Of a stretch of DNA of 64,000 bases, positions 11,157 through 11,219 are shown one piece after another. How positions within the stretch are numbered: position 1 is the first letter of the stretch; each line of letters opens with the position of its first letter. The stretch lies in NCBI RefSeq assembly GCF_045037415.1, contig NZ_CP173438.1; one strand, written 5' to 3'. Source of the stretch: Escherichia coli (GTDB taxonomy: Bacteria > Pseudomonadota > Gammaproteobacteria > Enterobacterales > Enterobacteriaceae). The translations under genes were made by a program, and so were the position numbers. The notes under the pieces are model-generated. The model had not been told where the DNA came from. It searched no databases and saw only the letters and a program-made list of their open reading frames with translations.

Positions 11157-11219
11157 AATCGTTCTACTTTCCCAACTTTTATGTGTATATAATACCAGGA
11201 TAAAGTAACGGAGAATCTT

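Follow-up and report, generated by a model that had tools for sequence, protein, structure and literature searches.

The window, a stretch of 64,000 nucleotides of Escherichia coli DNA (contig NZ_CP173438.1), carries a prophage gene for a Q-type antiterminator, followed by an island of cargo genes, a short block of regulatory elements and the beginning of the late region. The features lie in the following order.

10788-11156, plus strand: antiterminator Q, 122 aa (PF06530 at E=3e-47).
11157-11219, plus strand: 63-nt spacer with TATAAT at 11188-11193 and GGAG at 11211-11214, followed by a GTG start.
11220-12260, plus strand: C5 cytosine DNA methyltransferase, island cargo (PF00145 at E=1e-53; PADLOC type II MTase/DrmMII).
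12229-12918, minus strand: HEPN protein of the MAE_28990 family (PF18737 at E=4e-16).
12921-14078, minus strand: DUF262/ParB-like (GmrSD_N) protein (PF03235 at E=1e-25; PADLOC NsnA 6e-46, PD-T4-2_A 4e-27).
14079-14125, no strand assigned: right end of the island, the upstream region of the minus-strand operon; in alignments common only to loci of the same island class.
14126-14160, plus strand: candidate late promoter PR', homologous to the 933W/Sakai cassette that abuts Q and invariant in 26 flanking contexts.
14161, plus strand: predicted late start, an A, homologous to the dRNA-seq start of Sakai Sp5 PR', with an uncertainty of a few nt.
14162-14188, plus strand: conserved initial transcribed region (A)GTGGTTACTACGCCACACAGCTTAAAC; +1 to +17 nearly invariant among Q lineages 45-100% identical.
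14189-14210, plus strand: predicted intrinsic terminator tR', with stem CCGCC/GGCGG at 14189-14202, loop GCCA and T-run TTTTTTGT at 14203-14210.
14332-14529, plus strand: conserved 65-aa ORF past tR', annotated in relatives as hypothetical or TrmB-family.
16635-16928, plus strand: phage-21-type holin S, first intact lysis gene of the late operon (PF04971 at E=2e-32).
16933-17283, plus strand: DUF1327.

The Q protein matches profile positions 1-111 of the 118 in PF06530, that is, it is intact over nearly the whole profile. This family was named Q21/Q933W by Yin et al.; the match between the window Q and the solved Q21 is weak (E=1e-3). Among Q genes followed by different classes of island, similarity stops after the ...GFIDG codons (~11114 in the window), so that each cargo class brings its own Q C-terminal tail together with the sequence downstream of it. 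The final ~14 codons of Q (from about 11115; 11115-11156) thus belong to the variable cargo cassette, and the C-terminal tail appears to be dispensable. These codons vary by island class (LSFFIYYNDLSSM, LSFFYLIQ, LRMV and others), and the recombination junction on the left side of the cargo slot therefore falls within the coding frame of Q. On the other side of Q, a gene for a DnaB-type helicase and an 85-aa ORF (9134-10788) are found where related Q genes have DUF968/RusA/NinH genes upstream; the Q cassette of the window therefore sits in a different early-region mosaic.

The island following Q is low in GC (0.34-0.40, as against 0.50-0.56 in the flanks), with the GC trough spanning 11100-14100. 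The HEPN gene is convergent with the methyltransferase gene, their 3' ends overlapping by 32 nt. The ParB-DUF262 sensor protein of the PD-T4-2 and Menshen systems is present in the island (PADLOC, PF03235), and the HEPN protein has no PADLOC match. Menshen is defined by a sensor (NsnA), an ABC ATPase (NsnB) and an effector (NsnC) (PMC12065111), and a paper on Menshen reports methylases in company with DUF262 systems. Neither NsnB nor NsnC was found in the island, where only the HEPN gene accompanies the DUF262 gene with no ATPase ORF, which points to a PD-T4-2-like pair and not to Menshen proper. By their profile matches, then, the DUF262 and HEPN genes are a PD-T4-2-like two-gene defense pair.

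An earlier note on this DNA gave the distance between Q and the methyltransferase gene as 63 nt, and so it is: Q ends at 11156 and the GTG start lies at 11220, leaving a gap at 11157-11219. The TATAAT-type element described for this gap is also present (TATATAAT), at 11186-11193 and thus one base off the 11185-11192 originally given. The hexamers 16-18 bp upstream of TATAAT (TACTTT, CTACTT, ACTTTC) include none that is acceptable as a -35, in agreement with the note, which had further seen no room for a tR'-type terminator; a scan indeed finds no hairpin or terminator there. Zero plus-strand promoters and zero terminators were returned by a consensus scan of the 63-nt gap. The window has a single copy of the octamer TATATAAT, with 0.92 expected by chance, and 56 of 100 shuffles have at least one, so that the octamer alone is not beyond chance.

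The spacer itself is nearly identical in five aligned loci of the same island class (the window, L019, L020, L004 and L042), and alignment revealed no counterpart of it in L030, L002 or L010. The Stx2c prophage L002 has 21 nt between Q and the end of a convergent gene, and the ORF that follows Q in the Stx2e prophage L003 overlaps it; a late promoter immediately 3' of the gene is therefore no feature of this Q lineage. Conservation of the spacer only within one island class suggests that it is probably the methyltransferase's own promoter, without a -35, and ribosome-binding region, and not the late promoter.

The terminator hairpin that had been noticed ~3 kb past Q, at 14186-14210, is real, with its stem and T-run at 14189-14210. 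When the sequence 14079-14700 was compared by BLAST with complete E. coli genomes, most relatives matched only from the hairpin (query ~110), and a minority extended upstream to query 26-70. Those fetched from the first group encode a different antitermination protein of 273 aa, ending ~80 nt before the hairpin, and another fetched locus, in which similarity starts later, has a DUF1133 protein in its place. The fetched relatives with upstream similarity (query 26-70) have a small PF06530-type Q.

Comparison with relatives lacking the island, which the earlier note had proposed, was carried out, and in L030, L009, L011 and 933W/Sakai the cassette directly follows Q. The predicted start lies 52 nt past the Q stop in L030, an IMG/VR contig with a Q 89% identical to that of the window and no island, and 45 nt past it in L009 and L011 (Q 61% identical). 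In the Stx2a phage Stx2_12E129_yecE and phage 1720a-02 (Q 61% identical) the block begins ~15 nt past the Q stop. The 933W-like loci L013, L014 and L016 (Q 45-47% identical) have the predicted start 22 nt past the stop, and in VT2phi_272, Sakai Sp5 and a Stx1 phage the block, of sequence TTTACGATCGTAAAAATCTGCATATCATGATAAGAGTGGTTAC...CCCGCCGATGCGCGGGTTTTTTT, overlaps the Q stop codon. Alignment of the loci shows TAACGCGTACGCAAAAA-N-TAT..TA...TGTTAAGAGTGGTTACTTCGCCACACAGCTTAAAC to be almost invariant, followed by a GC hairpin and T-run, with unrelated DNA to the left. In the window this conserved block (TAACGCGTACGCAAAAA-N-TGTTAAGAGTGGTTAC...hairpin-T6) occupies 14126-14210 and is kept in loci with differing flanks; it begins 2970 nt past Q, and its predicted start at 14161 is 3005 nt past the Q stop. 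A late promoter whose location had been called unclear is thereby placed at 14126-14210 by comparison of relatives, and the flagged hairpin becomes the terminator of its cassette. Two alternatives had been left standing: insertion of the island between Q and the late promoter is strongly supported by this arrangement, and the methyltransferase as first late gene is not supported, the spacer being specific to one island class.

A peptide-pattern search of IMG/VR yielded 80 loci with a Q 84-100% identical to that of the window. Of the 80, 76 have the composite motif used for the cassette (ACGCGTACGCAAAA, 12-16 nt, TAAGAGTGGT) on the downstream side of Q, with 52 to 3018 nt between the Q stop and the predicted start. 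Three of the four motif-negative loci end at a contig edge 53, 1350 and 2357 nt past Q, and the fourth is L038. There an IS3-type transposase follows the cargo gene and is itself followed by tail genes (L038 7388-9000), with no cassette and no lysis genes; the position of the transposase next to the tail genes indicates IS-mediated deletion of the late regulatory region. In the reverse check, an exact DNA pattern of the cassette gathered 120 loci, 61 of which had at least 3.9 kb of upstream sequence and were evaluated. A window-type Q lies upstream of the cassette in 60 of these; at the exception the island exceeds the available upstream sequence and includes a transposase-like ORF. Counting 76 IMG/VR contigs, four annotated records and the window itself, 81 Q-selected loci have the cassette, and just one of them has the late promoter next to Q.

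The DNA inserted at the 80 loci falls into at least 25 unrelated classes in an all-against-all BLAST, with sizes of 0.6-3.0 kb and a GC content of 0.29-0.43. Island ORFs of at least 80 aa are all on the minus strand, except for the window's methyltransferase and one 101-aa ORF. Some of the islands at loci L017-L096 have matches to known or candidate defense families (PDC-M53A, PDC-S33/RelA_SpoT and NA37 nucleoid-associated proteins). As far as sequence comparison can tell, the interval from Q to the promoter is a slot for hypervariable cargo, and separation of Q from its target is the rule in this Q lineage. In having fixed flanks and interchangeable low-GC cargo, the slot resembles the P2/P4 hotspots (Rousset, 2022) and lambdoid morons. 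As in the defense hotspots of prophages and satellites, its cargo includes defense genes (PD-T4-2-like, PDC-M53A, PDC-S33/RelA_SpoT). Unlike other hotspots, however, it lies between a regulator gene and that regulator's own DNA target, and its cargo consequently does not belong to the late operon, to which it is nearly always antisense. A limited, shallow search of the literature found no description of such a slot between Q and the late promoter.

Within the cassette, column conservation across 26 contexts climbs steeply at -36 and remains high as far as about +25. The promoter region consists of a lineage-specific block TAACGCGTACGCAAAAAA, the -10 TATCGT at 14149-14154 and TGnTAAGAG from 14154. 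No recognizable -35 is present (TAACGC), and the -10 matches the consensus at 4 of 6 positions. A simple sigma-70 scan called no plus-strand promoter at 14126-14160, and comparative evidence was used instead because the consensus scan is silent at both this site and the spacer.

The position of the start rests on the homologous late promoter of Sakai Sp5, for which a dRNA-seq start at 1,266,203 and a Term-seq 3' end at 1,266,460 delimit an RNA of 258 nt (Sy et al., PMC7547250). The stx2A gene is at 1266965..1267924 in NC_002695.1 (PMC5310930) and at 1267107 in NC_002695.2, and the Sakai start was carried over by the resulting offset of 142, checked on the stx2A coordinates in the two genome versions. 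The converted start falls on position 846 of L016, an A seven nt past TATCAT and 22 nt past the Q stop, and the converted 3' end on position 1103, where a terminator T-run has its last T; that both ends fall on sensible positions supports the conversion. Given an experimentally mapped start and homologous DNA, the start is transferable to the window, where A14161 is the predicted homologous base, to within a few nt. The hexamer at -12 to -7 reads (T/C)AnnnT in every lineage examined, which supports the register set by 14161. Three other elements were considered and rejected. Neither TATTAT at -17 to -12, with which TAAGAG would fall at +2 like the phage 21 element, nor TGnTAAGAG as an extended -10 was retained for the main promoter: the -12 to -7 hexamer alone keeps its second-position A and sixth-position T in all lineages, and it also fits the Sakai start and the 258-nt length. 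The TTTACA-like hexamer at -48 to -43 has the wrong spacing to serve as a -35 for any -10.

TGnTAAGAG is invariant across contexts with n free, and TAAGAG occupies -4 to +2. Invariance of this kind looks like a contact of the sigma-70 extended -10 type, and TGnTAAGAG together with the initial transcribed region is a candidate sigma-dependent pause region, though one with an unusual position relative to the start. Between +2 and +12 the contexts compared conserve no -10-like pause hexamer, with A as its second and T as its sixth base. A GUGGU/GCCAC hairpin is predicted at +2 to +17; its variants lack consistent compensatory changes, and no claim is made for it. The hairpin and T-run of the window cassette end at +50, and +1 to +52 folds with a dG of -18.2 kcal/mol. 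In 23 of 31 contexts there is a T-run at +42 to +61 with a hairpin that closes no more than 2 nt away, and retention of this hairpin despite different stem sequences indicates selection for structure. A transcript of ~45-50 nt is predicted to form at tR' when Q is absent. The terminator strength of the window hairpin is uncertain, since the homologous first hairpin in Sakai is evidently read through to give the 258-nt RNA.

Several known systems are arranged in a like manner. The late cassette of phage 21 (Guo, 1991; Yin, 2019; OL657228) belongs with a Q of the same family, PF06530, and has the same order of promoter, -35/-10 spacer element, start, TAAG... region and terminator at ~+50. In both cases late lysis genes follow, including a phage-21-type holin. 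In the phage 21 record the Q stop is at 1732, the -35 TTGACA at 1739-1744, the Q-binding element (QBE) at 1747-1762 (ATTGAGCA AATGAGCA), the -10 at 1762-1767, the start at 1774, the SDPE TAAGCTG at 1775-1781 (+2 to +8) and the end of the terminator at 1823 (+50). The differences are considerable. Q21 has 162 aa and the window Q, a distant relative, 122 aa; the phage 21 cassette starts 7 nt past Q, as against 2970 nt in the window; the QBE is a direct repeat at -27 to -12 beside a perfect TTGACA, whereas the window has a palindrome at -31 to -24 and no -35; and TAAGCTG at +2 to +8 contrasts with TAAGAG at -4 to +2.

The PR' regions of 933W and of Sakai Sp5 and Sp15 show clear DNA homology to the window, which begins at about -35 and reaches the first hairpin (TTTACGATCGTAAAAATCTGCATATCATGATAAGAGTGGTTAC...CCCGCC..GGG-T7), although their cassette overlaps the Q stop codon and their Q is 45-47% identical to that of the window. 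In Sakai transcription extends to a further terminator, at +258, and the RNA gives rise to the 74-nt StxS (Sy et al., 2020, PMC7547250). A blastn search of the window with the 258-nt RNA found nothing at the locus beyond the first ~50 nt, the 74-nt StxS part being absent, and the window has the 65-aa ORF where Sakai has the 3' part of this transcript. Lambda Q is of family PF03589, unrelated to PF06530 (Yin et al.). The late cassette of lambda has no sequence similarity to that of the window. The logic of Q, PR', 6S RNA and tR' is nevertheless the same, with a short terminated RNA and promoter-proximal loading of Q that makes the polymerase terminator-resistant. In lambda the short RNA is 194 nt long and Q adjoins PR'.

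The promoter part of the cassette includes a perfect palindrome, GCGTACGC, at 14130-14137 (-31 to -24, centered at -27.5), which in the window's lineage occupies the place of the missing -35. A broader pattern, TAAGAGTGGTNACNTNGNCAC, gathered cassettes of several Q lineages. At about 130 loci the sequence from -38 to -18 sorts strictly with the lineage of the Q upstream, with no mixed pairs. Each lineage has its own perfect palindrome of 8-14 bp, centered at -27.5 or -28 and lying within -34 to -21 (L003, L008, L009, L016, L222-L251); in shuffled 25-mers, palindromes with arms of at least 4 occur at any position in about 11%. The palindromes are as follows.

GCGTACGC: the window (14130-14137) and its Q lineage.
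TTTACGATCGTAAA: 933W type, where it also supplies a 4-of-6 -35 that the window's lineage lacks.
TTTACGTACGTAAA: L008 and related Q lineages.
(T)GCGGTCCGC(A): L009 and L011.
ATTCGTTACGAAT: L223.
TGTTATAACA: L246.
TGCGTTACGCA: L231.
GGAATTCC: L222.
TGTAATTACA: L251.

The genes upstream of Q vary (DnaB and the 85-aa ORF in the window, DUF968 in L004, NinH in L013), and Q, the sole gene consistently linked to the cassette, is for this reason the best candidate for the protein that reads the palindrome block. The lineage-specific palindrome is accordingly put forward as a candidate Q-binding element, with a symmetry unlike the direct repeats of Q21. Tentatively, Q proteins of the small-Q (933W-like) branch may recognize a lineage-specific palindrome at -27.5/-28, and the interval between Q and this site may then be a dedicated cargo slot; we hold this at less than even confidence. 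Were it so, the binding geometry would differ from that of the tandem Q21 protomers, and Q might have a role in promoter use besides antitermination. With Q acting in trans, the interval would be a dedicated and rapidly exchanged slot for antisense defense cargo expressed in the lysogen.

Another reading, which we consider less likely than not, would make the palindrome at -31 to -24 the operator of some other dimeric regulator, or a scar of recombination or insertion, with Q reading the invariant TAAGAGTGGTTAC region instead. It draws on the precedent of Q21, which binds two direct 8-bp repeats and no palindrome, on the GTTA repeated at 10-bp spacing in TGTTAAGAGTG/GTTACTTCGC and invariant across Q lineages, and on the position of the palindrome at the island boundary. 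Yet an element common to Q proteins only 45% identical cannot give specificity, and Q proteins are phage-specific, lambda Q failing on H-19B (as cited in PMC6266700). The palindrome, moreover, is present in island-less phages and changes its sequence in step with the Q lineage around a fixed center at -27.5/-28, and it is Q alone, not the differing upstream neighbors, to which it is consistently linked.

Taken together, the comparisons make it very probable that the late unit starts at the PR'/tR' cassette at 14126-14210, ~3.0 kb past Q, with the island between Q and its promoter. From homologues whose Q proteins are 45-47% identical, we infer that the promoter is active and Q-dependent in the window's lineage as well. 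Mechanistically this would be the Q/PR'/tR' switch already known from the Q21/Q933W family, here with a defense island splitting the regulator gene from its target. RNA polymerase would start at about A14161 from the -10 TATCGT (14149-14154) without the help of a good -35 and, if Q is lacking, would stop at the hairpin and T-run at 14189-14210 to leave an RNA of ~45-50 nt. On induction, Q (10788-11156) would be made from the early rightward transcript, load onto the polymerase at the cassette and carry it through the terminator. The bases contacted by Q may lie in the lineage-specific block with GCGTACGC, centered at -27.5, and those contacted by sigma in the invariant TGnTAAGAGTGGTTAC around +1, the candidate pause region. 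The modified polymerase would then read the 65-aa ORF, a methylase/esterase remnant, the holin gene and the remaining late genes. The DNA from ~11115 to 14125 would be a replaceable low-GC cargo cassette placed between Q and the target of Q, and the spacer with TATAAT, as part of this cargo, would most likely drive transcription and translation of the methyltransferase independently of Q.

That the cassette is an inactive relic, in a defective prophage that has lost a working Q-dependent late switch, is improbable. The -35 of PR' is poor, a ~1.6 kb deletion has cut the neighboring methylase gene short and joined it to an esterase remnant, no tRNA genes remain, and an IS has removed the late region of at least one relative (L038). 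A poor -35 is common to the whole lineage, however, including the island-less L030, and is thus not a sign of decay. Q matches nearly its whole profile, the window cassette departs from its lineage consensus at essentially none of the conserved positions between -36 and +17, the holin gene is intact, as are the lysis genes downstream of it, and the locus is 100% identical in about 70 genomes.

Least probable by far is a late promoter formed by TATATAAT, immediately past Q, in which case the methyltransferase gene would open the late unit and modified polymerase would cross both the cargo and the hairpin at 14189. In its favor, TATAAT at 11188-11193 is a perfect -10 and lies just past Q, the canonical position, the methyltransferase gene shares its strand with the late genes, and the hairpin could act as a Q-suppressed terminator. 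Against it, the 63 nt have neither -35 nor hairpin nor space for a pause/terminator unit, the octamer is at chance frequency, the spacer is confined to loci with the window's island (other relatives having 21 nt or less, or an overlapping ORF, past Q) while the 14126-14210 cassette is in all 76 evaluable relatives, a late transcript would collide with the two of three island genes that are antisense, and the linkage of the lineage-specific -36 to -18 block to Q would be left unexplained.

With the late unit assigned to the cassette, the annotation of the window is settled: the late operon would begin at about 14161, the hairpin would be the late terminator, and the methyltransferase and the two antisense genes would be lysogen-expressed cargo outside Q control. 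Annotators and studies of Stx phages usually assume that the late promoter abuts Q. The same Q lineage is found in Stx2c phages, and assays using DNA just past Q would for this reason miss the real late promoter. The gap between Q and the promoter may also be a convenient hunting ground for new defense genes, and the covarying palindromes offer a testable prediction of how proteins of the small-Q branch read DNA.

Some further features of the region were noted. A search for tRNA genes found none, and an Rfam search of 10700-17000 at E<=1 likewise returned none. The 65-aa ORF downstream of tR' is common to prophages with unrelated Q families, and it is followed by a second terminator-like hairpin at 14516-14539 (14516-14533 plus a T-run), which is, beside tR', another candidate for the main Q-suppressed stop. 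Between 14680 and 16562 an N6/N4 DNA methylase gene keeps its first ~455 nt and is joined, at a junction at about 15134, to the middle of a NanS-like SASA/DUF6645 esterase gene; such truncation and fusion suggest that the prophage may be partly defective. Relative to O157 prophages the fusion amounts to a deletion of ~1.6 kb, which also removed the position at which relatives carry tRNA genes.
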